From contig JAEWLJ010000017.1 in NCBI GenBank assembly GCA_023393455.1, positions 96,693 through 120,692 of the forward strand: DNA of 24,000 bases. The letters are read 5' to 3'. Shown piece by piece: positions 5,034 through 20,430 of the stretch. Within the stretch, counting starts at the first letter, position 1. Each line of letters starts with the position of its first letter. The stretch comes from Methanobacteriota archaeon (GTDB lineage Archaea; Halobacteriota; Methanomicrobia; Methanomicrobiales; Methanoculleaceae). Position numbers and translations under genes: made by a program. Under the pieces are notes generated by a model, which made no database searches, was not told the origin of the DNA, and saw nothing but the letters and a program-made list of their open reading frames with translations.

Positions 5034-5444
5034 TTACCGATTGGGTCTAAGGGCTCCGGCTCAAGATCCATCTGGTGGCTGAATTCGAACGGGGGATCGC
5101 CCACTACATCAGCCAGGTACTCACCCACCGACGGATCCACGGGTCCGCCTGGCGGCTCAAGCTGAGCAGGTTTAATACCCCGTGCATCGATGCCTTCCAT
5201 TGAGTACACACCGACAGGGACACCGTCCACCCGATCGATGCCATCTCCGCATTCATCCGGAAGACCGGCCGCTGGAATCTCCCTGTCGTAAAGTTCCAGT
5301 TTGATGCGGGGCTACCAGGGGAGTGCCCGGGCCAGGTAAGAAACGGTCTCCGGCCCTGCTGTGCATCTGAGCCATCCGGCGTGGAGTACGACCTGCCGGG
5401 ACCCGACACAAATATCCTCTCTCACCGCCAACTGATGGAGAAGT

Positions 5445-7988: not shown

Positions 7989-8010
7989 CATATAATAATA
8001 TCTATATATG
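7989..8010 (+). promoter_or_regulatory. TATA-box region for FAS1 gene 1
   Basis: CATATAATAATATCTATATATG lies 40-60 nt upstream of ATG 8050. GGGAGG (8035-8040) serves as the ribosome-binding site. Confidence 0.5.
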
Positions 8011-8049
8011 AGAGCCGACCACGAACCGCCCGCAGGGAGGTACCTGGTA

Positions 8050-8496
8050 ATGGCGAAGATCTTTGATACGTTACAGAATGATAGCAGGTTCGGCCGGCTG
8101 GTCGAGATCATCCAGACCCTCGGTGAGGAGAAGACGCTGCAGGGCGAAGGGCCGATGACGTTTTTTGCCCCGGTCGACTCGGCGTGGGACGCAATCCCCG
8201 AACCGAACCAGTCGATGATCATGAACGACAAACAGATGCTCTCGCACCTGATCGACTTCTTCACGATCGGCAATCACAAGTGCACGCTTGAGGCGCTCCT
8301 GAAAAAGAACGTCGTGCAGACTGTCGAAGGAAACAACATCATGGTCAGGAAGACCGACCGGGGTACGCAGGTGGACACGGCCGTCGTGATCGAGGGAGAC
8401 ATCGAGGTGGAGAACGGGATCATCCATGTCCTGGACGGTGTTCCCTTTGCGACGCTTGCGCAGGCCGAACAGGCCTACCTGTCGACGAACGTTTGA
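8050..8496 (+). CDS. Fasciclin (FAS1) single-domain protein, no signal peptide (paralog 1)
   Basis: The start is set at MAKIFDTLQNDSRF, the ATG at 8050 with GGGAGG 9 nt upstream. FAS1 motifs are present: TFFAPVDSAW, NGIIHVLDGV. The FAS1 fold begins at residue ~3. Confidence 0.85.
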   Translation: MAKIFDTLQNDSRFGRLVEIIQTLGEEKTLQGEGPMTFFAPVDSAWDAIPEPNQSMIMNDKQMLSHLIDFFTIGNHKCTLEALLKKNVVQTVEGNNIMVRKTDRGTQVDTAVVIEGDIEVENGIIHVLDGVPFATLAQAEQAYLSTNV

Positions 8497-8497
8497 A

Positions 8498-8538
8498 CCC
8501 GGGCCGGAGAGCATCGTCCGGCCGGGAACCTATTTTTT
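8498..8538 (+). terminator. Hairpin plus T6 run after FAS1 gene 1
   Basis: CCCGGGCCGGA-GAGCATCG-TCCGGCCGGG forms a ~10-bp stem with one bulge. It is followed by TATTTTTTCT, with the T6 run at 8533-8538. Confidence 0.55.
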
Positions 8539-8593
8539 CTTCCCGCCAGGATACAGCGCTCCTCTCACCGGGCCGGCATCACCATGCCAGTAA

Positions 8594-8603
8594 TTTTATA
8601 TAT
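8594..8603 (+). promoter_or_regulatory. TATA box for FAS1 gene 2
   Basis: TTTTATATAT is centred about 33 nt upstream of ATG 8631. Confidence 0.55.
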
Positions 8604-8630
8604 CCAGTAAAATGATCCCGGGGGTTACCC

Positions 8631-9056
8631 ATGAAGAGTATCATTGAGACAGCCCGGGAAGATGACCGGTTGAGCACCTCCGTTGCGATGCTGCAGGCCG
8701 GAGGGAAGGTGGAGATGCTCCAGGGAGGGGAGTATACCGCGTTGTTCCCAACGAACGAGGCATATTCCAATTTCTCCCGGGAGGCGATTGAGAGCATCAC
8801 GGCCGATCGGGAGCGGCTTTCCGGTATGATCCTGTACCATGTGATCCAGGGCAAGCTCACCACGCACGAACTCGCGCAGATGGAGGCGATCAGGACACTG
8901 CAGGGCGACCACCTGGACCTTACGGGGCCTCCTCGTGCGCTACGGGTGAACGATGCCACCGTCATCCAGCCCGACGTCGAGTGCACGAACGGCATCTATC
9001 ATGTCATCGACAGGGTGCTCCTGCCGCAGGTGGTCGAGGCGCGGGTGAAGCGATAG
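8631..9056 (+). CDS. Fasciclin (FAS1) single-domain protein, no signal peptide (paralog 2)
   Basis: 141 aa, MKSIIETAREDDRL... FAS1 motifs are present: ALFPTNEAYS, YHVIQGK, CTNGIYHVIDRVLLP. Confidence 0.88.
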   Translation: MKSIIETAREDDRLSTSVAMLQAGGKVEMLQGGEYTALFPTNEAYSNFSREAIESITADRERLSGMILYHVIQGKLTTHELAQMEAIRTLQGDHLDLTGPPRALRVNDATVIQPDVECTNGIYHVIDRVLLPQVVEARVKR

Positions 9057-9124
9057 GTTCCCGGCCGGAGAGCGTCCGGCGGCGTGGATCGGCCGGCTCA
9101 TCGGGCCGTGCGGGCCTGCCCGTA

Positions 9125-9136
9125 GTTATATATATC
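9125..9136 (+). promoter_or_regulatory. TATA box for FAS1 gene 3
   Basis: GTTATATATATC lies about 40 nt upstream of ATG 9170. GGGAG sits at 9156-9160. Confidence 0.5.
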
Positions 9137-9169
9137 GTGCCCCCGCAACTCCCGCGGGAGTTAGTTCGC

Positions 9170-9604
9170 ATGAAGAGTATCCTCGCGACCCTGCGTGACT
9201 CGGGATCGTTTGACGTCTTTCTTGACCTTGTACGGGCGGCCGGCATGGAGAAGCGGTTCGAGATCGACGGGCCTTATACGCTCTTCGTCCCGGACGACGA
9301 TGTCTTCCGGGAGGTTCCCCGGCCCAGACTCGAGGCCATCCTCCGGGACGCCGACCGGCTCGGCGATACCCTGAACTACCATACCGTCCCCGGCGTGCAC
9401 TCCATGATCGATCTCCTCGGCATAGGGACGCTCCGGTCGCTCCAGGGCGATGACCTGACCGTGGAGGTTGCGCCGGGGGGGGTGCTGGTCAACGGTGCGG
9501 CGGTCGTGGAGTCCGATGCTTGGTGCACCAACGGGATCTGCCACGCGGTCTCCACGCTGCTCCTGCCGCCGCCCGTTGCAAGAACGGCCGCCGTACGCGG
9601 GTAG
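9170..9604 (+). CDS. Fasciclin (FAS1) single-domain protein, no signal peptide (paralog 3)
   Basis: The start is trimmed to ATG 9170 (MKSILATLRDSGSF...). Motifs present: LFVPDDDVF, YHTVPG, WCTNGICHAVSTLLLP. The upstream part of ORF 8981..9604 is Arg/Gly-rich and spans the TATA box. Confidence 0.85.
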   Translation: MKSILATLRDSGSFDVFLDLVRAAGMEKRFEIDGPYTLFVPDDDVFREVPRPRLEAILRDADRLGDTLNYHTVPGVHSMIDLLGIGTLRSLQGDDLTVEVAPGGVLVNGAAVVESDAWCTNGICHAVSTLLLPPPVARTAAVRG

Positions 9605-9610
9605 CCGGAA

Positions 9611-9623
9611 CGTATAAATAATC
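9611..9623 (+). promoter_or_regulatory. TATA box for FAS1 gene 4
   Basis: CGTATAAATAATC lies about 38 nt upstream of ATG 9656. GGAG sits at 9644-9647. Confidence 0.5.
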
Positions 9624-9655
9624 AGGTACGGTTAGGTGCGCGTGGAGAGAGCAAC

Positions 9656-10081
9656 ATGAAGAACATCATCGAAACCCTGGAGGACTCCGAGAACCTCGCC
9701 GTTTTTCTCGATCTGGTCAGGATAGCGGGGATGGAACCGATGCTCCGTGAGAGGGGGCCGTTCACGGTCTTCGTCCCGACGGACGAGGCGTTCTCGCGGG
9801 TCCAGAAGGAGCGGATGGATGAGATACGGCAGGATGCGGATAAACTCCTCCTCATCGTGAGTTACCACGTCGTGCCGGGGCGGTTGGCCTCGGAGGATCT
9901 CCGGAGCATCGCCGCCGTCCGGTCGAGCCTCGGGACGGATCTCGTCATACGGTCCTCCGACCGGGGAATCACCGTCAACAGTGTCCCACTCGTCGATACC
10001 GACGCGTTCTGCACCAACGGGATCTGCCACGCGATAGCGTCGGCGCTCGTCCCGCCGACACTGGAGATCGTCACCCCCTGA
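9656..10081 (+). CDS. Fasciclin (FAS1) single-domain protein, no signal peptide (paralog 4)
   Basis: 141 aa, MKNIIETLEDSENL... Motifs present: VFVPTDEAFS, YHVVPG, FCTNGICHAIASALVP. Confidence 0.88.
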   Translation: MKNIIETLEDSENLAVFLDLVRIAGMEPMLRERGPFTVFVPTDEAFSRVQKERMDEIRQDADKLLLIVSYHVVPGRLASEDLRSIAAVRSSLGTDLVIRSSDRGITVNSVPLVDTDAFCTNGICHAIASALVPPTLEIVTP

Positions 10082-10086
10082 TCGGG

Positions 10087-10991
10087 CTACCGCTCTCGCG
10101 GCAGGCGGAACCGCCCGTCCCGCCGGGCGATCCCGACGGCGGCAAGGGCACTCTTCTCCTTATCCTTGATCTCGAGCATGATGTCCATATCCGCCGGTGC
10201 GGTCGCGGCGAGGAACCGCTCGAAGTCGGCAGCATCAAGGCTCTCCGCGTGCCGGCCCTTTCGCCCGCCGGGCATCGGGGTGCTGTAATCGACCATCGGG
10301 ATGCCGTCGCGGGGTCGCCAGGTCGCGCCGGAGAGTTCGACCGCTTCGGCTACCGTTACGCCGGAGGGATTGACCTGGTGGTGGAAGGCGTCGAAGAGCA
10401 CCGGGATGCCGGTCTCCTCGTGGATGCGGAGGCAGTCGGCCAGGGTGTACCGCGAGTCATCGTTCTCGACGACCAGCCGACGGATGACGCACTCGTCGAG
10501 CCCTGAATAGACGTTCGTGAACCGCATCATGACGGATTCGGGGTCGCCGTAGACCCCGCCGATGTGGATCTGGATCTTCGCGGTCCCATCGAGGTGCATG
10601 GCGTCGAGAAGGGCGGCGTGGTAGCGGAGTTCCGCGACGCTCCGCTCAACGATACCGGGGTCTTTCGCGTTGATGACGACGAACTGGTCGGGGTGCATGG
10701 AGATCCGCATATCGTGCTCGCGAACGAACCGGCCGATCTCGCGAAACCTCTCCGCGAAGGCCCCCTGCCAGTCGGCGGTGCAGACCGGGTGCGATGCGAA
10801 CGGCACGAGGCCGGAGCCGATCCGGAAGAAGAGGAGCACTCTTTGAGATTGAAGTGGAGGATCTCCCCAAGGCACCTGAGATTCTCCCGGACGGTCTCCT
10901 CCAGCCGTTCGCCGGAGTAGGAGGAGAGCCGGAACGTGCGGCCCGAAGAGCAGCCGATGCTCCGGTTGATGCACGGGTAGCCGATCTTCAT
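10087..10991 (-). pseudogene. uvdE: UV damage endonuclease UvdE, split by a 1-nt frameshift near 10839 (or a sequencing error)
   Basis: The N-terminal UvdE homology ([14 protein letters not shown]...FRLSSYS...[15 protein letters not shown]) is in the frame starting at 10991. The rest ([18 protein letters not shown]...IQIHIGG...VVENDD...LFDAFHH...MLEIKDKE) is in the frame ending at 10087. The two frames share a single G at 10839. Confidence 0.75.
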
Positions 10992-11025: not shown

Positions 11026-11910
11026 TTACCTACAGGTATATGTGCCCTCGCTCTCGGCGACGAACCCCTCGCGGGCGAGGTCGCCGAGGATCCGCTTCAC
11101 CCGCCCCGGCTCTTCGCAGAGCCGGAGGATCATCTCCTTCTCCGTGACCGTCCCTTCATCGAGGACGAGCGCGAGGATTCGCCCCCTGATCTGGCGGTCG
11201 GAACCCTCGAACCGGCTCTGCCGGGAGTAGGACGCGCTCCTCCGGTTCGGGTTCGCCGTCCGCTTCTTCAAGACCGTACCGTAGTCCATCATCGCGCTGT
11301 ACCACTCCCGCGGGTTCTCGCGGTAGAGGGCCAGTTCGACGAGCGGGAGGATCTCGTCGTCCCGGACGCCTTCCCGGTCCTGGAAGAAGAAGTGGATGAA
11401 GATCCGCCGGATGTTCGTCTCGATGTAGACGACCGGCATGTTGAACGCATACGCAACAATCGCCGCCGCGGTCGCCTTCCCGATCCCGGGGAAGGTCGCG
11501 AGCGTCTCGACGTCGGCGGGGAGCCTGCCGCCGTACTCCTCCGTCACGCGCCGCGCGGTCTCCTGGAGCGCGATTGCCCGGCGATTGTAGCCCATCCCCT
11601 GCCAGGCGAGGAGCACCTCACTTCTGGGGGCACGGGCAAGGCTCCCGAAGCCCGGGAACTGCTCGATGAACTCCTGGTACTTCACGGCGACCCGCTCGAC
11701 CTGCGTCTGCTGGAGCATGATCTCGGAGACCAGGATCCGGTAGGGATCGGTGGTGTGCCGCCAGGGGAGGTCGCGGCCGTGGACCCGGAAGTAGGAGAGG
11801 ATGAGGTCGCGGAAGAGAGCGATGGTCTCTGGCGTGGGCCCGTGCGCCCGGGTCTCTTCGAGGATCCGCTGTTCGAGGTCGTTCTGGTCGGGGTCGAGGC
11901 TACCGATCAC
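11026..11910 (-). CDS. HhH-GPD DNA glycosylase, MutY-like catalytic core without Fe-S cluster loop, C-terminal winged-helix
   Basis: MutY-like stretches are visible: [34 protein letters not shown], Hh[13 protein letters not shown]. The start is proposed at GTG 11910, because 11911-12210 of the ORF is AT-rich and not protein-like. The tail ...[21 protein letters not shown]...[12 protein letters not shown] looks like a wHTH. Confidence 0.8.
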
Positions 11911-12259
11911 GGTATATCGTTTGTCTGACAGGGGCAAATAGGTTGGGCCGGGGGGTGGAGGAGTATCCCACGCGTATGAATGTAAATAGGTTCGCTGAAC
12001 CAGAACAAGAATGATGTAGTTACAGCCTTCTCTGGAAAACGGGCTTGAATATTCGCCGTTCTGTTTTCGCATGCCCGTGAACGGCTTTCCAGTTGGTATC
12101 CCCACGGTCCAGTGTATCGGGGCCGCCGGGGTAGATCGCAATTCAGGTAATCTTCTTACAAACTGCAGAGTTTTAATCCCTACAGATGTGATAAGAGGTC
12201 TTTTGGGCACGGAGGCCGCTCCAATAACCCGTTCTCACAGCGCGCCCCGACGAGCCTCT

Positions 12260-15200
12260 TCACTCCATCCGCGCCCGCATCACCGTGAGCCGGACGCCCG
12301 ACTCGCCTTCGATCTCGAATGTCCGCGTATCGCCGTGCACCCGGCAGAACTCCTGCAGGTCGAGCATATGCCGGAACCCCGCCGCCGCCTTCTCGTTCTG
12401 CACCAGTTCAAGCGGCGGCTCTAAGAGCGGCCGGGGCAGGAAGACCACGCACTTCGCCCGGCTCCGGGTCAGGGATACGTTCAGGCGGTTTCTGCTGTAG
12501 ATGAACTCGGCCTCGCGAAGGGCGGTCTCGACGTCGCTCACGCCGTAACTGATGATCGCGCTCTCTGCCTCCTGTCCCTGCATCTTGTCGACGGTGTCCA
12601 CGAACGGCGGATACTTCCAGATCTGCACCCCGGCGAGACCGGTCTTGATGGCGCCGATCTGGGCGTGGTGCGGGCTGACGATGAAGAGCCCGTGCCGCCA
12701 GAACCGGTAATCTCCGTCCTCCGTCGCCGGATACCGTTCTCCCGAACCGGGATCGACGAGCCGCTCCCGGAGCGCTCCGGCGAGCCGGGCGACCAGCGCC
12801 GCCTCGACCGGGTTCTCCACTGTCGTCCGGACGCCCTCGAGGACGCAGAGCACGAGCGGGTATGCCGGATCGATGGCCCACTCCACCCACTCCTCCAGCG
12901 GCGGAGCCGGCGCGAGGGCGATCCGCTGCCCCGAGATCGCGTCGGTTGCGGGAGCGTAGCCGGTGCCGTAGAGCGTCTCCGCCGGGAACCCCGAGAGGGT
13001 GCGGTTCATCCGCCAGTTCTCCTGGAGCTGGCAGGTGTAGACCGGGCGGGCGGGGTCGTCGCGGTGCCGGAGGTAGGCGAAGACGGAGTCCTCGAGCCCG
13101 GGGAGGCCGTCAGCCGGTGCGGGATACGCCCCCTGGACAACCGGCGGAAGCTGGAGGTCGTCCCCCGCGAGGACGAGCCGGCCGGCCGGCCCGAGCATCG
13201 GGAGCACCATCGCGAGCTCCGCCGCCCGCATCTGCGACGCTTCGTCGACGATCAAGATATCGAGGGACGGGAGTGACTTCTCGAGTTTTGCGAACCCGTG
13301 CACCGTCCCGCCGAGGAGGAGGCCAGGGTAGCCGACGACGGTCTCCGCCCGGTCGTGAGCCAGCACCTCGAGGCTCCGCTCCCCGCCGGGCGTCCGGATA
13401 TCCCCCAGTTTGTAGATCGGCAGACCGGCAGCAAGGCCGAACTCGTCGACCGAGGCCTGCACCTTGACGAGCAGGTTCTCGACGGCCGCGTGAGTGAACG
13501 CCGCGACTCCCACACGGATCCGCTCCCCGTGCGCCCGCCGGGCTTTGACGAGCGAGAGGATGGTCGTCGCGAGGAAGTGCGTCTTCCCGGTTCCGGGCGG
13601 CCCCCAGACCAGGGTCAGGCGGTTCTCCGTCACGTGGGAGAACGCCGTATTCTGGCTTCTCGTGAACCCTGCCTCGCGGGCGAACCGCCCGGCGTCGGCG
13701 GCGACCCCTCGGGGCTCACCGGTCGGCGCGGCGAACCCCCGCGGGTCACAGAGGAGACGAATGAAGTCGTTCTCCGGCTGCTCGTCGAGAGCGAGGAGGC
13801 GGTCGACGTAGCGCGGCGCGATGAAGTCCGTGAACCGGGGGTGCAGCACCGCGAGATCGCCCTCGTCAAACGGCGGGTGATCCCGGGAGTAGGCCACCTC
13901 CAGCACGAGCCCCCTGACCTCCCCGGCCGTCCGGTCGACGATGGTGTCGCGGACCCTCGCGAAACAGACCCCGCTGTTCCTGGGGTTCGGGCTGCTCCGG
14001 TAGCGGAGGTCGTCGAACGCCTGCTCCGCCTCCTCGCCCGCCTCGCCTTCCGGCACGAGGAGGTAACTGAACGCCCGTGACTGCTCGAAGAGTGCGAGAT
14101 CCAGGGGGCCGAGCACCTTCCAGAAGTTCCCCTCGCTCTTCATGAGGGGGATGCTAACACCGTCCCGGACCCTTGCCGCCCGCGGCCCGCTCCGCAGTTC
14201 CTGCACCTGCCGGGCACCCATCGTCGACTCGTACTCTGCGATGAAGAGGAGGCGGGATATCTCGGGCGTCGCAGCGTCCCAGGAACCCGGGAACCGGAAC
14301 TTCTCCGCCCACCGCACGAGTTTCTCCTTCGTCCGTTCGCGGAGCCCGTCGAGGACGCTCCCCGCGGCGAGCAGGCGGCGCGAGACCTCCTGCCGGACCC
14401 AGTCGAGAGCCTCCGGCCGGTTCCCGTGCCATGCCATGATGATGGCGTCGCTCTTCATGGCGTTACCGTGCTCGCCCCAGAAGAGGGAGCTCGCATCAAG
14501 CCGGTACGCGAACCGGGAGGAGGGGATCGCCGCGAGGACCTCGGGCAGGCGGAGGGTGAACGGGACGGGAAGCGCGAGCAGCCGCCGGATCTCCCTTGTC
14601 AGGGCGACGATCGGGAAGGAAACGGACGTACTTGGGTGGCTTGACCCAAGAGCGATGCCGGGATCCTGGTAGTAGAACCGCAGCCTGAGAGCGTCCGCGG
14701 CCGTTACGGGGTCGTCGAGCGCCTCTTCGAGCAGGCGAGTGAAGAGTTCCTCCTCGTAGGTGTCGTAGACGTAGGTCTGCACCGACTCCTGTTCAGCCCA
14801 GTCGCGGCCCCGGTTGTAGTCGTCGACGGTCGTGAGTTCCGCGGCGAGAGCCCGGAAGAACTCCCGGCGCACCCGGGCACAGTCGCCGGGGTCTTTTGCG
14901 ACATAGATCGCTTCGTGCGACGGCGTCCCATAGACGGCCTTGCCCCTGCTCCGCCGGAACCCGAGGGCGTATACCCGGCCGGAGACGGGATCCTTCTGGA
15001 GCGTCAGGGTGACGGCGATATCCTCGTAGACGGGGAGTGCAAGCGAGGTCGCGGCGAGCGGAATGACCTCTCCCGTGGTGAGCGCCCGGACGGTCGCCCG
15101 CAGGCGGTCGCCCTGGCCGGCGAGCGACCCGCAGTTGTCGAGGCAGCCATCGCTCTCCGGATCGCGGAGGAGGTCGGCGAGGTCGGAGAGCGCGTTGATC

Positions 15201-16039
15201 GGGAGCCCGCCGTCCCACGGGGCTTCTCGAAGGTAACGTCGCCCGCCGGACGAGAGACCCGGGATCTGCGATACCGAGGAGGAGGCCTCCGCCTCAGCGC
15301 GGCAGTGGGCGTAGAACTCGCAGGACTCGCATCGCGACGTGAGGTGCCAGGGCACGTCCTCCGGAGGGGCGGCAAGGATACCCGGGAGGCGGTGGCGGAG
15401 GAACTCCTCGATCACCCGTCTGTTGAGGGAGAGGTCAAAGGGTTCCGGTTCGTCCTCCCCGTAGAGCCAGATCCCCGCGCGGTTCCGGTCGACCGGGAGA
15501 TCGAGCCCGAGCAGGTCCAGGGCGTGATCGAGGATCAGGACGTACAGCGTCGCCTGGATTCGGTGGCTGACGCTGAGTTCTTCGCTTGCCTTGATATCGA
15601 TGATCCGGAGAGACCCTTCTTTATCGGCCCTGATGAGATCGGGGCGGCAGGGGGAGAACCGGTGCATCCCGGGGTCGAGGCCGTAGTCCTGCAGGAAGTG
15701 GATCGAGGCCGGGATGGTCGTCTGGTAGATCGCCTCGCCCGGGGAGAGGAGAGGGAGGAGGTTGAAACTCTCCTCGATGGAGAACGACCTCTCGGAGATT
15801 GGCCCCGTCCCGTCCGGGATTCGTACCCTGCCCATGAGTTTCGTCCGGATCACCTCCTCCTCCCACCGGATGCCGGCATCGAGGAGGGCTCGCGTCACCG
15901 GGCTCGTATCGATCGCGGCCGCCGGGATACCGGCTCTGGCACGCTCCTGCTCCGGGGTCGCGTGGTAGCGGAGATGGCGTTCGCAGTCGTGGTAGAAGAA
16001 CCGGCCGATGAGCGACGGGCTGAGGTTGAAGCGTGGCAT
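12260..16039 (-). CDS. Cas4/AddB-type Fe-S PD-(D/E)XK nuclease + HhH/RNase-H-like module + Upf1/Dna2-type SF1B helicase fusion (1259 aa)
   Basis: Nuclease: C19, D134 (PDLIR), IIDIKAS (D148/K150), QATLY, and CESCEFYAHC (CX2CX5C, nt 15302-15331). HhH: IPGLSSGGRRYL. Helicase: Walker A GPPGTGKT (nt 13580-13603), ILIVDEASQM, LAGDDLQLPPV, QENWRM, VDTVDKMQGQEAE, RLNVSLTRSRAK. Confidence 0.9.
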   Translation of the reverse strand: MPRFNLSPSLIGRFFYHDCERHLRYHATPEQERARAGIPAAAIDTSPVTRALLDAGIRWEEEVIRTKLMGRVRIPDGTGPISERSFSIEESFNLLPLLSPGEAIYQTTIPASIHFLQDYGLDPGMHRFSPCRPDLIRADKEGSLRIIDIKASEELSVSHRIQATLYVLILDHALDLLGLDLPVDRNRAGIWLYGEDEPEPFDLSLNRRVIEEFLRHRLPGILAAPPEDVPWHLTSRCESCEFYAHCRAEAEASSSVSQIPGLSSGGRRYLREAPWDGGLPINALSDLADLLRDPESDGCLDNCGSLAGQGDRLRATVRALTTGEVIPLAATSLALPVYEDIAVTLTLQKDPVSGRVYALGFRRSRGKAVYGTPSHEAIYVAKDPGDCARVRREFFRALAAELTTVDDYNRGRDWAEQESVQTYVYDTYEEELFTRLLEEALDDPVTAADALRLRFYYQDPGIALGSSHPSTSVSFPIVALTREIRRLLALPVPFTLRLPEVLAAIPSSRFAYRLDASSLFWGEHGNAMKSDAIIMAWHGNRPEALDWVRQEVSRRLLAAGSVLDGLRERTKEKLVRWAEKFRFPGSWDAATPEISRLLFIAEYESTMGARQVQELRSGPRAARVRDGVSIPLMKSEGNFWKVLGPLDLALFEQSRAFSYLLVPEGEAGEEAEQAFDDLRYRSSPNPRNSGVCFARVRDTIVDRTAGEVRGLVLEVAYSRDHPPFDEGDLAVLHPRFTDFIAPRYVDRLLALDEQPENDFIRLLCDPRGFAAPTGEPRGVAADAGRFAREAGFTRSQNTAFSHVTENRLTLVWGPPGTGKTHFLATTILSLVKARRAHGERIRVGVAAFTHAAVENLLVKVQASVDEFGLAAGLPIYKLGDIRTPGGERSLEVLAHDRAETVVGYPGLLLGGTVHGFAKLEKSLPSLDILIVDEASQMRAAELAMVLPMLGPAGRLVLAGDDLQLPPVVQGAYPAPADGLPGLEDSVFAYLRHRDDPARPVYTCQLQENWRMNRTLSGFPAETLYGTGYAPATDAISGQRIALAPAPPLEEWVEWAIDPAYPLVLCVLEGVRTTVENPVEAALVARLAGALRERLVDPGSGERYPATEDGDYRFWRHGLFIVSPHHAQIGAIKTGLAGVQIWKYPPFVDTVDKMQGQEAESAIISYGVSDVETALREAEFIYSRNRLNVSLTRSRAKCVVFLPRPLLEPPLELVQNEKAAAGFRHMLDLQEFCRVHGDTRTFEIEGESGVRLTVMRARME

Positions 16040-16152
16040 GGACGGACCCGGGGGAAGCCCCCGTTATGACTCATCTGTTTGTGCCGCCGCGGGAAAATGG
16101 TTGGTATTCGGGTTTTCTCGTGAGATCGAGGTTGTCCTAAAACCTCTTTTCC

Positions 16153-16173
16153 GGGAGGGGGACACCCCCTCCC
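16153..16173 (-). other. Perfect 9-bp G/C hairpin (possible terminator element)
   Basis: GGGAGGGGG-ACA-CCCCCTCCC. On the minus strand a TTTT follows about 10 nt later. It lies about 170 nt downstream of the HTH-NTase stop, so its role is uncertain. Confidence 0.3.
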
Positions 16174-16344
16174 GATCCCTCCCCCGAGTGGCGATATCCA
16201 ACGGAAAGCCGTTGCATTCATCTGGCTCAGGATGTGGCTCAGATGACAGATTCCTGAGAATTATTGGCTCCGATAAGGGTATGCCGGAGGTTCGGAGAGC
16301 TTTTTGGGATGACCACCCGGATAAACCCTTGCTGCTTCAGGTCT

Positions 16345-16956
16345 TCAACCTTCGCCAATCAGCATCACCCCTGGTTCGTTGAGCACGTTCATGACGAACG
16401 GATCGCCCTCGGCGATCCTCTGATCCATCTCCTCTCTCGGGAAGAGAACATAGTTTATCTCTCTTCCAAGTGCTGCTTCTGTCTCCCGGACGACGGGCAT
16501 CCGGAGGTCTTCATCAACATCCCCGACGATGAAGAGGTCGATGTCGCTTGTCGCACCAGCCTTTCCACTGGCGAAGGAGCCGAAGATGAAGACGGTATCG
16601 ACGCCGCCGACGCCGGCGAGGCCTTCTCGTACGACCTTGGCCACTTCTTCGGTCTTGAGGATGATAGCAGTCAACTCGGGGTAGATCGGAAAATTCTTGT
16701 TTACCACGTAGTACCGCGCATTGCCGCGGCGGGTACTCGTCGGGAGGCCAATCTCCTCGAGGTTTGCGAGTTCCCGCCGGACAGCGTTGAGGTTCTCTCC
16801 GGTCATCCGCTGAACCTCTCGGAGATAGATCTCGCGCTCCGGGTTCAGGAGGAAGAGGATTCGGAGTTTCACCCGGGTCTTCGAGGGAATGAGCCGTTCG
16901 AGCACGAATACATATTGTATACGATACTCCGGTGCAGGGGCCGGACCGCCCCTCAC
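16345..16956 (-). CDS. Winged-helix (ArsR-like) + minimal nucleotidyltransferase (MNT-type) fusion protein
   Basis: wHTH: KTRVKLRILFLLNPEREIYLREVQRMTGENLNAVRRELANLEEIGL. NTase: FIFGSFASGKAGATSDIDLFIV (GS...DxD). The start is either GTG 16956, in a GTGA overlap with the upstream stop, or GTG 16905. Confidence 0.8.
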   Translation of the reverse strand: MRGGPAPAPEYRIQYVFVLERLIPSKTRVKLRILFLLNPEREIYLREVQRMTGENLNAVRRELANLEEIGLPTSTRRGNARYYVVNKNFPIYPELTAIILKTEEVAKVVREGLAGVGGVDTVFIFGSFASGKAGATSDIDLFIVGDVDEDLRMPVVRETEAALGREINYVLFPREEMDQRIAEGDPFVMNVLNEPGVMLIGEG

Positions 16957-17573
16957 CCGGTCACGTTCTCCGTCACATTCACAGCAGTCTCATTCTCCGT
17001 CGCGTTCACGGCGACTTCGTCTGCCGGCAATAGGATCACGTCTGGCGGGATCATGACCGCATCGATGGCATGGATGACGCCGTTCGCGGCAGGGATATCT
17101 CTCCGGACTATCCGTGCGCCGTTCACCGTCACGCTCTCGTCGGCGAAATCGACGGCGATCGGACTGCCCTGGACGGTTGGAACGGTATCGTTTGCAGCAA
17201 TCCCGACTGCCGTATACCTCCCCGGAGCCATGTGGTAGAGCAGGGTCTCGGCGAGGATGCCCTTCGGGTCGTCGAAGAGTTCTGCCATCGCGGTCTCCGG
17301 GACCCGGCTGAACGCCTCGTCCGTCGGCGCGAAGACGGTGTAGGGCCCCGGTCCGGCGAGCGTCCCCCCGAGTCCGGCGGTATCGAGCGCCCGGGCGAAC
17401 GCCGAGAAGTTGCCGTCCTGGGCCAGCACCTCGCCGACCGTCAGGTTCTCGCCGACCGGCGTCTCGTTCGTCCGGTTCAGGCCGCCGTCTCCCTGCGGGC
17501 CCGTGCAGCCGCAGATGAGAACCGCCGCCCCGATAGCCAGAACGGATATGAACAGCGTGTAGTTCGTTCGCAT
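16953..17573 (-). CDS. Secreted/lipid-anchored fasciclin (FAS1) protein with N-glycosylation sequon-rich tail (paralog 5)
   Basis: Signal peptide MRTNYTLFISVLAIGAAVLICGC is present. FAS1 motifs: VFAPTDEAFS, YHMAPG, NGVIHAIDAVMIP. There are nine N-X-S/T sequons, including the tail NATENETAVNVTENVTG. Confidence 0.88.
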   Translation of the reverse strand: MRTNYTLFISVLAIGAAVLICGCTGPQGDGGLNRTNETPVGENLTVGEVLAQDGNFSAFARALDTAGLGGTLAGPGPYTVFAPTDEAFSRVPETAMAELFDDPKGILAETLLYHMAPGRYTAVGIAANDTVPTVQGSPIAVDFADESVTVNGARIVRRDIPAANGVIHAIDAVMIPPDVILLPADEVAVNATENETAVNVTENVTG

Positions 17574-19094: not shown

Positions 19095-19139
19095 GCGACA
19101 CCCTGTAGCGCTTCAGAGTAATGAATGTTGGCGGGGACC

Positions 19140-20048
19140 TCACGTCGGCGGCCCCGCGTACACCGCCCGCGGCGCGGCGAGCATCTCCTCGCAGAAGGCA
19201 ATCGCCCCCGGGACCCTGCTCTTCTGGTAGACCACGGGTTTGATGCGGGGTGTCTTCACGCCGCCGATCGTCTCGAAGACCTGCGGCCAGGGCAGACTGT
19301 CGGCAACCGATGGAGGGCGGAGATCGTTATGGATATGAAACGCCTGCAGGGCTTCGAGCGGAACCTCGCCGAGCGATCCGGGGAACTCCTCTTTCGCGGC
19401 GGCGTGGAGGTGCCAGGGGTCGAGCACTATCCCGGCCAGCCCGGCGATCTCAGGATGGAGATCGTTGAGAGTCGCCCAGAACATCCGTATCTGACTTGCC
19501 GTGGAGATGCCCTGGTCTTTATGATGTTCGAGCAGCACCAGCGGTTCCGCCCCGAAAGCGTTCCAGTGGGTGACGATCAGGGCGTGCATCGCCGCGATGA
19601 TATCAGCGTGAGTGTTTTTCCGGTCGCCGGGGTGTATCTCGATGATCTCCGGAGGGATACCCATAAGGTCCTCGATCTCAAGGAGCATATCGCCGAAAGC
19701 GGCCACCCAGCCGGGATCGCGCCACCGCAGGCTTGCCGTCGCCTGCCGGCCGTGCGGGGTTCTCCGGGGGATGGCCGGTTCGGTGTGCAGGAGATACCTG
19801 AGGTCGCCCGGAAGGGTTGTATCCCGGTCGTAGAGGAGTTCGACGGACGACCGATTGAGCATCGACCCGATATCCTGCCCCGTCCGCTCCACCTCCGTCT
19901 GGTTCTTGATGAAGTCGGCGGGGATCTCGATGTATCTACACCCAAGCGGCTCGGCGAGGCGCCAGCGCTCAAGGAGCCCGCCCCGCTGGGCTGCTTCCGT
20001 GACGTTCGGGTAGATGTATTCTGTACCCGGCATGATGGTTTCCGTCAT
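19140..20048 (-). CDS. Hypothetical protein, possibly xylose-isomerase-like / AP-endonuclease-2-type TIM barrel
   Basis: 302-aa ORF with genome-typical codon bias, 45 nt upstream of the Trx-NHL gene. Strand-end metal-ligand-like motifs in series (LHTEP, IEIHPGD, LLEHHKD, FHIHND) resemble that superfamily. The functional call is weak. Confidence 0.6.
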   Translation of the reverse strand: MTETIMPGTEYIYPNVTEAAQRGGLLERWRLAEPLGCRYIEIPADFIKNQTEVERTGQDIGSMLNRSSVELLYDRDTTLPGDLRYLLHTEPAIPRRTPHGRQATASLRWRDPGWVAAFGDMLLEIEDLMGIPPEIIEIHPGDRKNTHADIIAAMHALIVTHWNAFGAEPLVLLEHHKDQGISTASQIRMFWATLNDLHPEIAGLAGIVLDPWHLHAAAKEEFPGSLGEVPLEALQAFHIHNDLRPPSVADSLPWPQVFETIGGVKTPRIKPVVYQKSRVPGAIAFCEEMLAAPRAVYAGPPT

Positions 20049-20163
20049 GGCGGGCGGCCTACAAAAACGTTGGGGATCCGATCCTGCGTCGTCTCCTTTT
20101 GCGGCGCGTCGGCGAGGGCGGGCGATCCGCCGGAGTTATTGCCGGACGAACGGCGTAACCTCA

Positions 20164-20430
20164 CTATGCAGGCCCCGGCCTTCTGCGCCTGTCGAGAACC
20201 TGCGGGCAGACGAACAGTACGTCCACGGGAGCCTGGATGTAGGTGCAGTAGACGCATCCGGGGTCATAGTATGTGCACGAAGGGCAACCCCATCGTTGCG
20301 GCTTCATCTCATCCTGTGGCAGCCGCCCCTCTGCGCTATCGTGCAACGTAGGCACCCCCCGCTCCTGTGCCTCGGGGTATTGAGCATCGGGGTTACTCTT
20401 CAGCGGATCGCTGTCACCAGGTGATCTCAT
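20164..20430 (-). CDS. Small hypothetical Cys-rich protein (CX2C-X7-CX2C zinc-ribbon/knuckle-like)
   Basis: 88-aa ORF in an otherwise empty 455-bp gap, containing GCPSCTYYDPGCVYC. AAGGT lies about 6 nt upstream of the ATG. Third-position GC is moderately elevated. The upstream region carries the same motif as the UbiA promoter. Confidence 0.4.
   Translation of the reverse strand: MRSPGDSDPLKSNPDAQYPEAQERGVPTLHDSAEGRLPQDEMKPQRWGCPSCTYYDPGCVYCTYIQAPVDVLFVCPQVLDRRRRPGPA

Follow-up and report, generated by a model that had tools for sequence, protein, structure and literature searches.

A probable Methanoculleus ortholog of the DNA2-like nuclease-helicase Bad, with a composite central region predicted from models and two candidate cellular roles

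What kind of enzyme is the large nuclease-helicase encoded near the middle of this stretch of archaeal DNA, and does it serve DNA repair or immunity? The stretch, called the window here, comprises 24,000 nucleotides of contig JAEWLJ010000017.1 (GenBank assembly GCA_023393455.1, Methanoculleaceae). The first question has a fairly firm answer: sequence identity and the enzymology of the family, taken together, make the gene very probably the Methanoculleus ortholog of Bad (bacterial DNA2-like), a prokaryotic DNA2-like nuclease-helicase. Bad proteins are defined by a single chain in which an iron-staple RecB nuclease is followed by a conserved central domain and a superfamily 1B (SF1B) helicase (Wilkinson et al. 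2020, Nucleic Acids Res, PMC7430649). The protein is thus already known: the 2020 paper named the family, characterised it biochemically and listed an ortholog that is 90% identical. What is new here is a structural reading of the central domain, together with the associations of Bad genes with BREX, type III restriction-modification (R-M), Dpd and UvrD genes; the category of the protein is unchanged.

The open reading frame (ORF) of 1259 amino acids (aa), which the earlier note on this DNA had placed at 12260-16039 without a strand, is real; it starts with ATG and runs on the minus strand. Its parts, from the N-terminus to the C-terminus, are listed below the whole gene.

12260..16039, minus strand: whole gene, Bad-family (DNA2-like) nuclease-helicase, from the ORF, its translation and 90% identity to WP_011844558.1.
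15290..16039, minus strand: aa 1-250, iron-sulfur (Fe-S) 'iron-staple' RecB-family PD-(D/E)XK nuclease, from its motifs, their invariance in 30 homologs and the PDDEXK_1 match.
15065..15277, minus strand: aa 255-325, helix-hairpin-helix (HhH)-like helical segment with IPGLSSGGRRYL at 259-270, four short helices in the AlphaFold2 model.
14570..15037, minus strand: aa 335-490, domain with an RNase H-like fold that probably lacks DEDD exonuclease activity, from both models and Foldseek.
14165..14452, minus strand: aa 530-625, long paired helices (model residues 290-319 and 338-362), a putative Upf1/Dna2-type stalk.
13835..14152, minus strand: aa 630-735, six-stranded β-barrel (model residues 376-481), a putative 1B barrel resembling the oligonucleotide-binding (OB) fold.
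12410..13672, minus strand: aa 790-1210, SF1B helicase core with Walker A K819, DEAS at 932 and motifs III-VI, from AAA_11/AAA_12 and the Dna2 profile match.

A motif check on the translation located the cysteines of the Fe-S nuclease at C19, C237, C240 and C246, and the nuclease set at D134, D148-x-K150 and Q162xxxY166. The HhH-like motif IPGLSSGGRRYL begins at residue 259, and the helicase motifs GPPGTGKT, DEAS, GDDLQLPP, QENWRM, TVDKMQGQE and NVSLTRSR begin at 813, 932, 959, 1006, 1149 and 1187, so that every nuclease, HhH and helicase motif named in the earlier note was found at the residue claimed for it. An alignment of 30 homologs with at least 36% identity shows no variation in the four cysteines, the D/D/K/Q/Y set or the helicase motifs; retention of the four cysteines and the catalytic D/K by orthologs, which had been put forward as a check on an active Fe-S nuclease, was therefore seen in 30 of 30. 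Pfam recognises PDDEXK_1 at aa 132-247 (27.5 bits, cut-off 22) and AAA_11 plus AAA_12 at aa 793-1199, and gives no match at aa ~250-790. The domain order that had been read from the letters, a four-cysteine PD-(D/E)XK nuclease, an HhH/RNase H-like module and an SF1B helicase, is correct by the motifs, the domain models, the fold matches and the Dna2 profile alike.

In the first homology search, 108 homologs matched over most or all of the length with E ≤1e-190, a similarity that, as judged from the sequences, is far above chance. The identities are 67-90% in Methanoculleus, ~52% in Methanosarcina, and 45-50% in Desulfobacterales, Spirochaetes, Competibacteraceae and Myxococcales, with the Competibacteraceae homolog being 50% identical over its full length. 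A Syntrophorhabdaceae relative, also 50% identical, was found by a scan of GTDB genomes using the generic helicase peptides WGPPGTGK and GDxxQLPP. NCBI names the homologs 'bifunctional RecB family nuclease/DEAD/DEAH box helicase'. Among the Bad sequences shown in Supplementary Figure 1 in PMC7430649 are M. marisnigri WP_011844558.1 and M. bourgensis WP_014866635.1, as well as sequences from Methanofollis, Methanospirillum, Methanosphaerula, Methanohalobium and Candidatus Competibacter. The window protein and Methanoculleus marisnigri WP_011844558.1 are identical at 1133 of 1259 positions (90%) with zero gaps, and fall in the same 90% cluster. The residues altered in the Geobacillus Bad mutants D150A (nuclease-dead) and K815A correspond to D148 and K819 here, at an offset of 2-4 positions.

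Membership of the Bad family is established because of this gapless identity to a protein listed by the authors and the match of these residues. It is borne out part by part: the nuclease has the four-Cys iron staple, motifs I-III and QxxxY, with PDDEXK_1 above its cut-off; the helicase has SF1B motifs I-VI; and the central domain, represented by a profile of aa 255-795, is well conserved, the mean column identity being 49%. Geobacillus stearothermophilus Bad shares this composition of iron-staple RecB nuclease, conserved central domain and SF1B helicase, and the window protein differs from it in that its host is archaeal and no methyltransferase gene is its neighbour, whereas a type III-like methyltransferase gene adjoins the Geobacillus one. 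A protein search with the central-domain alignment returned 11 proteins, mostly fragments, with no Geobacillus sequence among them. The novelty that had been implied for the whole protein is unsupported, since the same architecture is that of a named family with a characterised member and with Methanoculleus orthologs already listed (PMC7430649).

The enzymology of the family has been worked out for Geobacillus Bad, a golden-yellow Fe-S monomer with ~3 Fe per protein. It is a single-stranded DNA (ssDNA)-dependent ATPase, a 5'-3' translocase and helicase, and an ssDNA endonuclease that favours 5' overhangs and cuts at a site 13 nt from the junction of single-stranded and double-stranded DNA (ss/ds junction). 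Its own nuclease inhibits unwinding, it extrudes ssDNA loops, and nicks and gaps are poor loading sites for it in vitro (PMC7430649). With the catalytic residues conserved here, the archaeal protein would be expected to act in the same manner. A 4Fe-4S-stapled RecB-type endonuclease would be placed before an SF1B motor; the enzyme would load, probably by threading, onto a single-stranded tail or flap with a free 5' end; and ATP would drive 5'→3' translocation and duplex unwinding, while the single strand would be cut ahead of the motor.

Is the protein, then, a true ortholog of eukaryotic Dna2, with duties in Okazaki-fragment maturation and replication-fork processing? The likeness is real: the Fe-S nuclease precedes the SF1B helicase in the same order, the best solved relative of the helicase is mouse Dna2 (profile E 2.6e-39 over aa 789-1199), and relatives are labelled 'DNA replication ATP-dependent helicase Dna2' in some sources. 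In the mouse Dna2 structures (5EAN/5EAW/5EAX), an Fe-S PD-(D/E)XK nuclease lies ahead of an SF1B 5'-3' motor with a stalk and a β-barrel between them, as is predicted for the window protein, and Dna2 and Bad both prefer 5' flaps and have a nuclease that inhibits unwinding. However, the sequence match to Dna2 is limited to the helicase, and a profile search against PDB sequences gave no match for aa 1-790. An insert of ~250 residues (~aa 255-490), comprising the HhH-like segment and the RNase H-like fold, is absent from Dna2. Moreover, Bad works without RPA and extrudes loops of ssDNA; it occurs sporadically, unlike Dna2, which all eukaryotes have and need; no replication genes adjoin the gene; and the authors who described Bad reject orthology with Dna2 (PMC7430649). 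Architecture and distribution largely refute Dna2 orthology, which we regard as very improbable.

Even less probable is membership of a named single-protein defence family (Nhi, type II Mokosh) or of the Cas4-type nucleases of CRISPR adaptation. Nhi and type II Mokosh, which the earlier note had offered as parallels, do resemble the window protein in joining a nuclease to an Upf1-like SF1 helicase in one polypeptide, and PADLOC models for MkoA (1e-30) and MkoC (1e-15) match the helicase core. Nevertheless, the parallel does not extend to membership. The MkoA and MkoC models cover only the helicase core (aa 782-1198), with neither a PLD domain in Pfam nor the MkoA N-terminal region; the 20 PADLOC families listed at E ≤1 include no Nhi model; and both families carry other nuclease modules and share no central domain with Bad. 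As for Cas4, faint matches at aa 131-203 (PADLOC E 0.012-0.02) speak for it, whereas Pfam Cas_Cas4 reaches only 14 bits against a cut-off of 22.7 and no cas genes occur among the annotated neighbours. The earlier description of the nuclease as Cas4-type is therefore sound as to a four-cysteine iron-staple PD-(D/E)XK nuclease and loose as to the Cas4 label, and membership of Cas4, Nhi or Mokosh fails on those of their defining features that were tested.

Two further assignments were rejected. The N-terminal module of PADLOC DpdJ matches the helicase core (1.8e-55), which takes up only model positions 5-458 of 2112, and the window has no DpdJ C-terminal part, DpdH, DpdA or DpdB. The TM0106 family model (TIGR03491) scores 31.2 bits against a cut-off of 97.45, its match being limited to aa 145-329.

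The region that sets Bad apart from Dna2 lies between nuclease and helicase. The structure and function of the central domain were 'completely unknown' as of 2020 (PMC7430649), and the earlier guess that novelty was most likely at aa 270-800 was a reasonable one, the region being unassigned in the literature. An AlphaFold2 model of aa 255-795, built from 62 homologs, is confident, with a pLDDT score (predicted local distance difference test) of 89.3 and a predicted template-modelling (pTM) score of 0.84. According to this model, the central ~540 residues are not one domain; they are predicted to be an HhH-like segment, a degenerate RNase H-like fold, and a stalk with a barrel, a division that is new here.

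The HhH-like segment (aa 255-325) has no match to Pfam HHH. It aligns with VPGLSHEGKRAL..GVRTVGDLA in a split, DpdJ-linked relative and with AGITRGQRR..GVxT in the class-2 proteins introduced below, and is closer to a standard HhH in these relatives than in the window protein.

In both models, the second part (aa 335-490) shows the order β-β-β-α-β-α...β-α with pLDDT mostly >90, the chain forming three strands, then a long helix and a fourth strand, and after these some helices and a short fifth strand, as is the case for RNase H-like folds. The second of these models, built separately for aa 324-516, has a pLDDT of 84, and its leading Foldseek match is human RNase H1 (prob 0.91, E 2.8e-3); the other leading matches, namely the RNase H of HIV reverse transcriptase, PIWI, EndoV, ExoI and Orn, all have the RNase H fold. 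When the whole central model was searched against PDB by Foldseek, no strong match was obtained; the weak matches are nevertheless consistent with one another, comprising RNase H-fold proteins (P-element transposase, the exonuclease domains of Pol alpha and phi29, PIWI, EndoV and NurA) as well as Sen1, SETX and IGHMBP2 with prob 0.92-0.93 over 205-227 columns. At the first-strand position where DEDD exonucleases have D-x-E, the Bad alignment has T346 in 61 of 62 and Q348 in 57 of 62 sequences. This replacement of the Exo I D-x-E carboxylates and the lack of a match to Pfam RNase_H_2 (PF13482) in aa 335-490 speak against membership of the DEDD/RNase_H_2 exonucleases.

A group of class-2 DNA2-like, or TM0106-family, fusions (P0109-P0114, with many plasmid copies) offers a useful comparison. 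They have the same order of Fe-S-type nuclease, HhH, RNase H fold and SF1B helicase, and retain FFDIEG with a match to Pfam RNase_H_2 (1e-12 to 1e-15), whereas the Bad clade has T-x-Q and no Pfam match; the two align well only in the helicase, at ~30% identity. These proteins may be the 'second class' reported from Mycobacteria in PMC7430649, since their sequences look actinobacterial.

The third part would be the Upf1/Dna2-type stalk and barrel (aa 530-735), beyond which helices of the AlphaFold2 model run into helicase domain 1A; a stalk and an OB/barrel domain are hallmarks of UPF1/DNA2-like helicases (PMC11090510). It is not hard to imagine that the HhH segment and the dead RNase H-like domain form a second DNA-binding site, which would hold the ss/ds junction or the displaced strand. 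Such a site would account for the junction-measured cleavage by Bad and for its ssDNA looping, and the prediction offers a concrete answer to a question left by PMC7430649 and points to where the second DNA-binding site for looping may lie. In an exhaustive search, the profile of the central domain found 614 cluster representatives at E ≤1e-3, 182 of them at ≤1e-30, and among the best 150 of the 614 the full-length proteins of ~1250 aa carry the domain at ~255-800. By this measure of sequence alone, the central domain is confined to the Bad family.

Several points weigh against this picture of the protein. All the activities given above for the archaeal enzyme are borrowed from the Geobacillus homolog. 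The RNase H-like fold matches are weak, none of them reaching E 1e-3, with TM-scores of ~0.3. Acidic residues are conserved in that domain (E339, D/E350 and E429) and may leave it a non-canonical active site. An hhalign comparison of the Bad central domain with the class-2 RNase_H_2 proteins gave E 0.25 and took in the HhH stretch only. The putative stalk and barrel are drawn from Foldseek matches with no query ranges reported, and the clamping of DNA by the HhH/RNase H-like pair is something that we purely infer.

The evidence from relatives and neighbours then raises the second question, the cellular role. The earlier note named two roles, repair and defence; they are the right candidates. 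The first candidate is that Bad is an effector or accessory of immunity against phages and plasmids and that the usual job of the family is to degrade foreign or unmodified DNA alongside modification-based defence systems. In this case, the motor-nuclease would attack linear or unmodified invading DNA from its 5' ends, beside UvrD-type helicases, and the Methanoculleus copy would be a stand-alone version. We consider the chances of this to be even.

The neighbourhoods of Bad genes in other lineages argue for such a role. In Methanosarcina mazei (L053:10001-23822, CP042908.1), a complete BREX type 4 set consisting of BrxP (2.7e-226), BrxC, PglZ and BrxL follows Bad on the same strand after ~100 bp, and toxin-antitoxin genes lie upstream of Bad. 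Two other Methanosarcina-type loci (L065 and L069) have toxin-antitoxin neighbours (MNT/HepT, PemK) in common with M. mazei, and type I R-M replaces BREX there. The site beside Bad in Methanosarcina looks like a defence hot spot because type I R-M in L065/L069 stands where L053 has BREX. Around the Competibacteraceae gene there are BrxC_BrxD, a BrxHI-like helicase, insertion sequence (IS) elements, an adjacent WYL regulator and genes of an integrative and conjugative element (ICE). In Syntrophorhabdaceae, a UvrD-PDDEXK gene overlaps the start of Bad and is followed by NERD+UvrD (PADLOC C3a187, 1e-79), RecQ and WYL genes. On one side of the spirochaete gene lie an adjacent, divergent NERD-UvrD gene and a gene for RNase T, and on the other a type III restriction endonuclease (4.8e-196) 23 bp away, followed by a type III methyltransferase (1.2e-211) and a UvrD-PDDEXK gene. 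Likewise, a type III-like methyltransferase gene lies beside bad in all Geobacilli examined (PMC7430649).

Altogether, of nine non-redundant contexts from outside the Methanoculleus core clade, six have defence genes within 10 kb. A defence role is further favoured by the sporadic distribution of the family, with archaeal and bacterial members ~50% identical, and by the variable insertion that adjoins the Methanoculleus gene (see below). On the other side, two bacterial loci have purely housekeeping surroundings. No known defence gene, except MNT/HEPN, occurs in the window or in the syntenic Methanoculleus loci, where one chromosomal position is kept across species 73-90% identical, a pattern commoner for housekeeping genes. 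The literature searched holds no phage-challenge experiment on any Bad protein, and the frequency just given comes from a small sample of about ten contexts without a computed background rate.

Split and fused relatives also bear on degradation of foreign DNA. Distant relatives 26-33% identical are borne on plasmids, which is a further point for defence. A tblastn search against plasmids found relatives, 28-30% identical, that are split into two genes. The first encodes a 771-aa protein aligning with Bad aa 6-588 (E 3e-25), which takes in the nuclease, the cysteine set, the HhH and the RNase H-like part and reaches into the beginning of the long helices. The next gene overlaps it by 4 bp and encodes a full-length long DpdJ of 2113 aa (PADLOC PDLC02895, E 0), the first 460 aa of which are 33% identical to Bad aa 757-1218 (E 5e-51). 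A 232-aa gene and then DpdH follow. This cassette is present in five loci (L004, L005, L066, L067 and L068), and in Skermanella rosea pSR-1 (L068:8989-21650) it adjoins dpdA, dpdB, queE and a 6-carboxytetrahydropterin synthase gene. The 771-aa protein is annotated as hypothetical and has no PADLOC model; it looks like an unlisted component of a Dpd variant. Compared with Bad, the pair is made of two genes with the break near the central-domain/helicase boundary of Bad, and DpdJ goes on for a further 1650 aa that include a YprA-type superfamily 2 (SF2) helicase, of which the window has none. The presence of a split relative inside Dpd-like cassettes again argues for defence.

In phage genomes, tblastn of aa 1-795 returned one weak match, in the uncultured human faecal phage MT835580.1 (38340-39827). 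It covers the nuclease, HhH and RNase H-like part with 27% identity over aa 6-505 (E 9e-14), and the record is unannotated.

Among the matches to the central domain there are also fusions. A UvrD-type superfamily 1A (SF1A) helicase is N-terminal in P0105 and P0188 and C-terminal in P0147, which looks like two separate fusion events, and in P0126 an N-terminal RNase T exonuclease domain is fused to a Bad-family protein. Genes for UvrD-PDDEXK proteins of ~910 aa recur near Bad-like genes in L063, L064 and L007. Because of these fused UvrD and RNase T relatives and recurring UvrD-PDDEXK neighbours, it is suggested that the 5'-3' Bad motor may work with a partner of 3'-5' polarity, either an SF1A motor or an exonuclease, in the manner of RecBCD. 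Bad and the RecBCD, AddAB and AdnAB enzymes are alike in combining a RecB-family nuclease (with an iron staple in AddB) with SF1 motors, and the UvrD neighbours and fusions of Bad relatives bring SF1A and SF1B motors together just as RecB and RecD do. Unlike those enzymes, the window gene stands alone, the 24 kb holding no UvrD partner for it.

A more specific proposal can be drawn from this, namely that Bad serves the 5' strand in a two-motor machine, built like RecBCD, for the destruction of DNA ends, and is the degradative arm of BREX type 4, type III R-M and Dpd/BRIGADE immunity. The partner, fused to Bad in some lineages, would be a UvrD-type 3'-5' helicase or helicase-nuclease, or a 3'-5' exonuclease, and the central domain, with its HhH segment and inactivated RNase H-like fold, would clamp the junction. 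Taken as a whole, we think this rather unlikely. If the model were true, the solitary Methanoculleus copy would be a stand-alone restriction factor or a domesticated repair version. In any case, the links to BREX, R-M, NERD-UvrD, Dpd and UvrD fusions make the guess of the Bad authors, a 'novel restriction enzyme', experimentally specific.

The Methanoculleus locus itself, beside UvdE and a glycosylase, offers the opposite and equally testable hypothesis of repair. The neighbours are as follows.

11026..12210, minus strand: HhH-GPD DNA glycosylase, the downstream neighbour (Pfam HhH-GPD 5.4e-14; longest ORF 394 aa).
10087..10974, minus strand: UvdE UV-damage endonuclease, the second downstream neighbour (Pfam UvdE 5.6e-53).
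16345..16956, minus strand: MNT-type nucleotidyltransferase, toxin-antitoxin-like, upstream (Pfam NTP_transf_2 1.4e-9).

For the glycosylase, the gene caller gives 348 aa with a start at ~12072. The neighbours are as the earlier note had described them, in that uvdE and the glycosylase lie on the same strand as the gene and that an MNT gene is directly upstream. Methanoculleus lineages with Bad 75-100% identical have in common the order Trx-NHL, fasciclin, a variable MNT with or without HEPN, Bad, HhH-GPD and UvdE, which continues with four fasciclin genes, DUF447, CitG, Dus, CbiX and CfbE.

On the repair reading, the vertically inherited Methanoculleus copy would process 5' flaps or ends in excision or recombinational repair. 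A nick by UvdE, or base excision initiated by the glycosylase, would be followed by strand displacement to a 5' flap, which Bad would thread and cut. In the S. pombe UVDE pathway, Rad2/FEN1 cuts flaps, and Dna2 likewise cuts long flaps. We hold this role for quite possible, at somewhat short of an even chance. The one-strand order of Bad, HhH-GPD and UvdE, kept in the window and in Methanoculleus loci 75-76% identical, is in its favour, as are the preference of Bad, like Dna2, for 5' flaps and overhangs (PMC7430649) and a Caulobacter plasmid relative that stands beside ImuA, DinB, an SOS-response peptidase and a 3'-5' exonuclease. So is the occurrence of ruvB, ruvA and ruvC near the gene of a 69%-identical Methanoculleus sp. 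relative. The ~52% identity between the Methanoculleus and Methanosarcina copies, in our judgement, fits old vertical inheritance.

Against the repair role, the link to UvdE is limited to one Methanoculleus clade. Neither glycosylase nor UvdE was found beside Bad in any non-Methanoculleus lineage examined. In the 69%-identical relative, labelled Methanoculleus sp., formate dehydrogenase genes are upstream, and an MFS transporter followed by ruvB, ruvA and ruvC is downstream. Fixed synteny with repair genes, which had been suggested as a test against a defence role, is hence present within one clade of one genus, and absent from the 69% relative and every other lineage examined; at such divergence, synteny may also persist as inherited gene order with no functional link. 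The gaps from Bad to the glycosylase gene are 188-521 bp in L059-L062, and because of them co-transcription of the two is not indicated and a tight Bad/glycosylase/uvdE operon is rejected; the glycosylase-to-uvdE spacing is 34 bp in L060-L062 and ~186 bp in L059. Moreover, nicks and gaps were unproductive for Bad loading in vitro (PMC7430649), and the rarity and sporadic occurrence of the family are not what a core repair enzyme would show.

Methanosarcina is genetically tractable. With Bad abutting BREX type 4 there, it would be a good place for deciding between defence and repair.

A co-operation of MNT with Bad is rejected, the former being present, absent or paired with HEPN among sister lineages: it is paired in L060 and L061, both genes are absent in L062, and no HEPN homolog was found in the window. 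MNT is a variable insertion and not part of the enzyme. Between MNT and Bad there is a non-coding gap of 305 bp (16040-16344).

Some minor observations on the Methanoculleus loci may be added. Four tandem fasciclin genes lie past uvdE (8008-10081, plus strand) and a fifth across Bad (16953-17573, minus strand), an arrangement kept in all Methanoculleus loci seen. In L002 (Methanoculleus sp. MH98A, NZ_JMIO01000095.1), RefSeq splits the Bad ortholog into 802 aa and 457 aa; tblastn runs over the whole 1258 residues with 92% identity, which suggests that a frameshift, a pseudogene or an error of sequencing underlies the split. In L070:13638-17099 (GCA_030019085.1, labelled Methanoculleus sp.), the ruvC-ruvA-ruvB genes, 1.3 kb from the Bad homolog, are of bacterial type, so that these methanogens must have RuvABC unless the contig is mis-binned. 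In L060, an Hjc-like gene lies between Dus and CbiX, and its match in the window (5066-5413, plus strand) is only 33% identical over 156 residues; the window counterpart is either far more diverged than its neighbours or has been replaced. Finally, a weakly AP_endonuc_2-like gene (xylose isomerase-like TIM barrel) at 19140-20048 of the window is 73% identical to its L060 homolog. Its true strand is minus, rather than that of the longer plus-strand ORF at 19125-20351, and, ~3 kb from Bad, it may be another repair-type gene.

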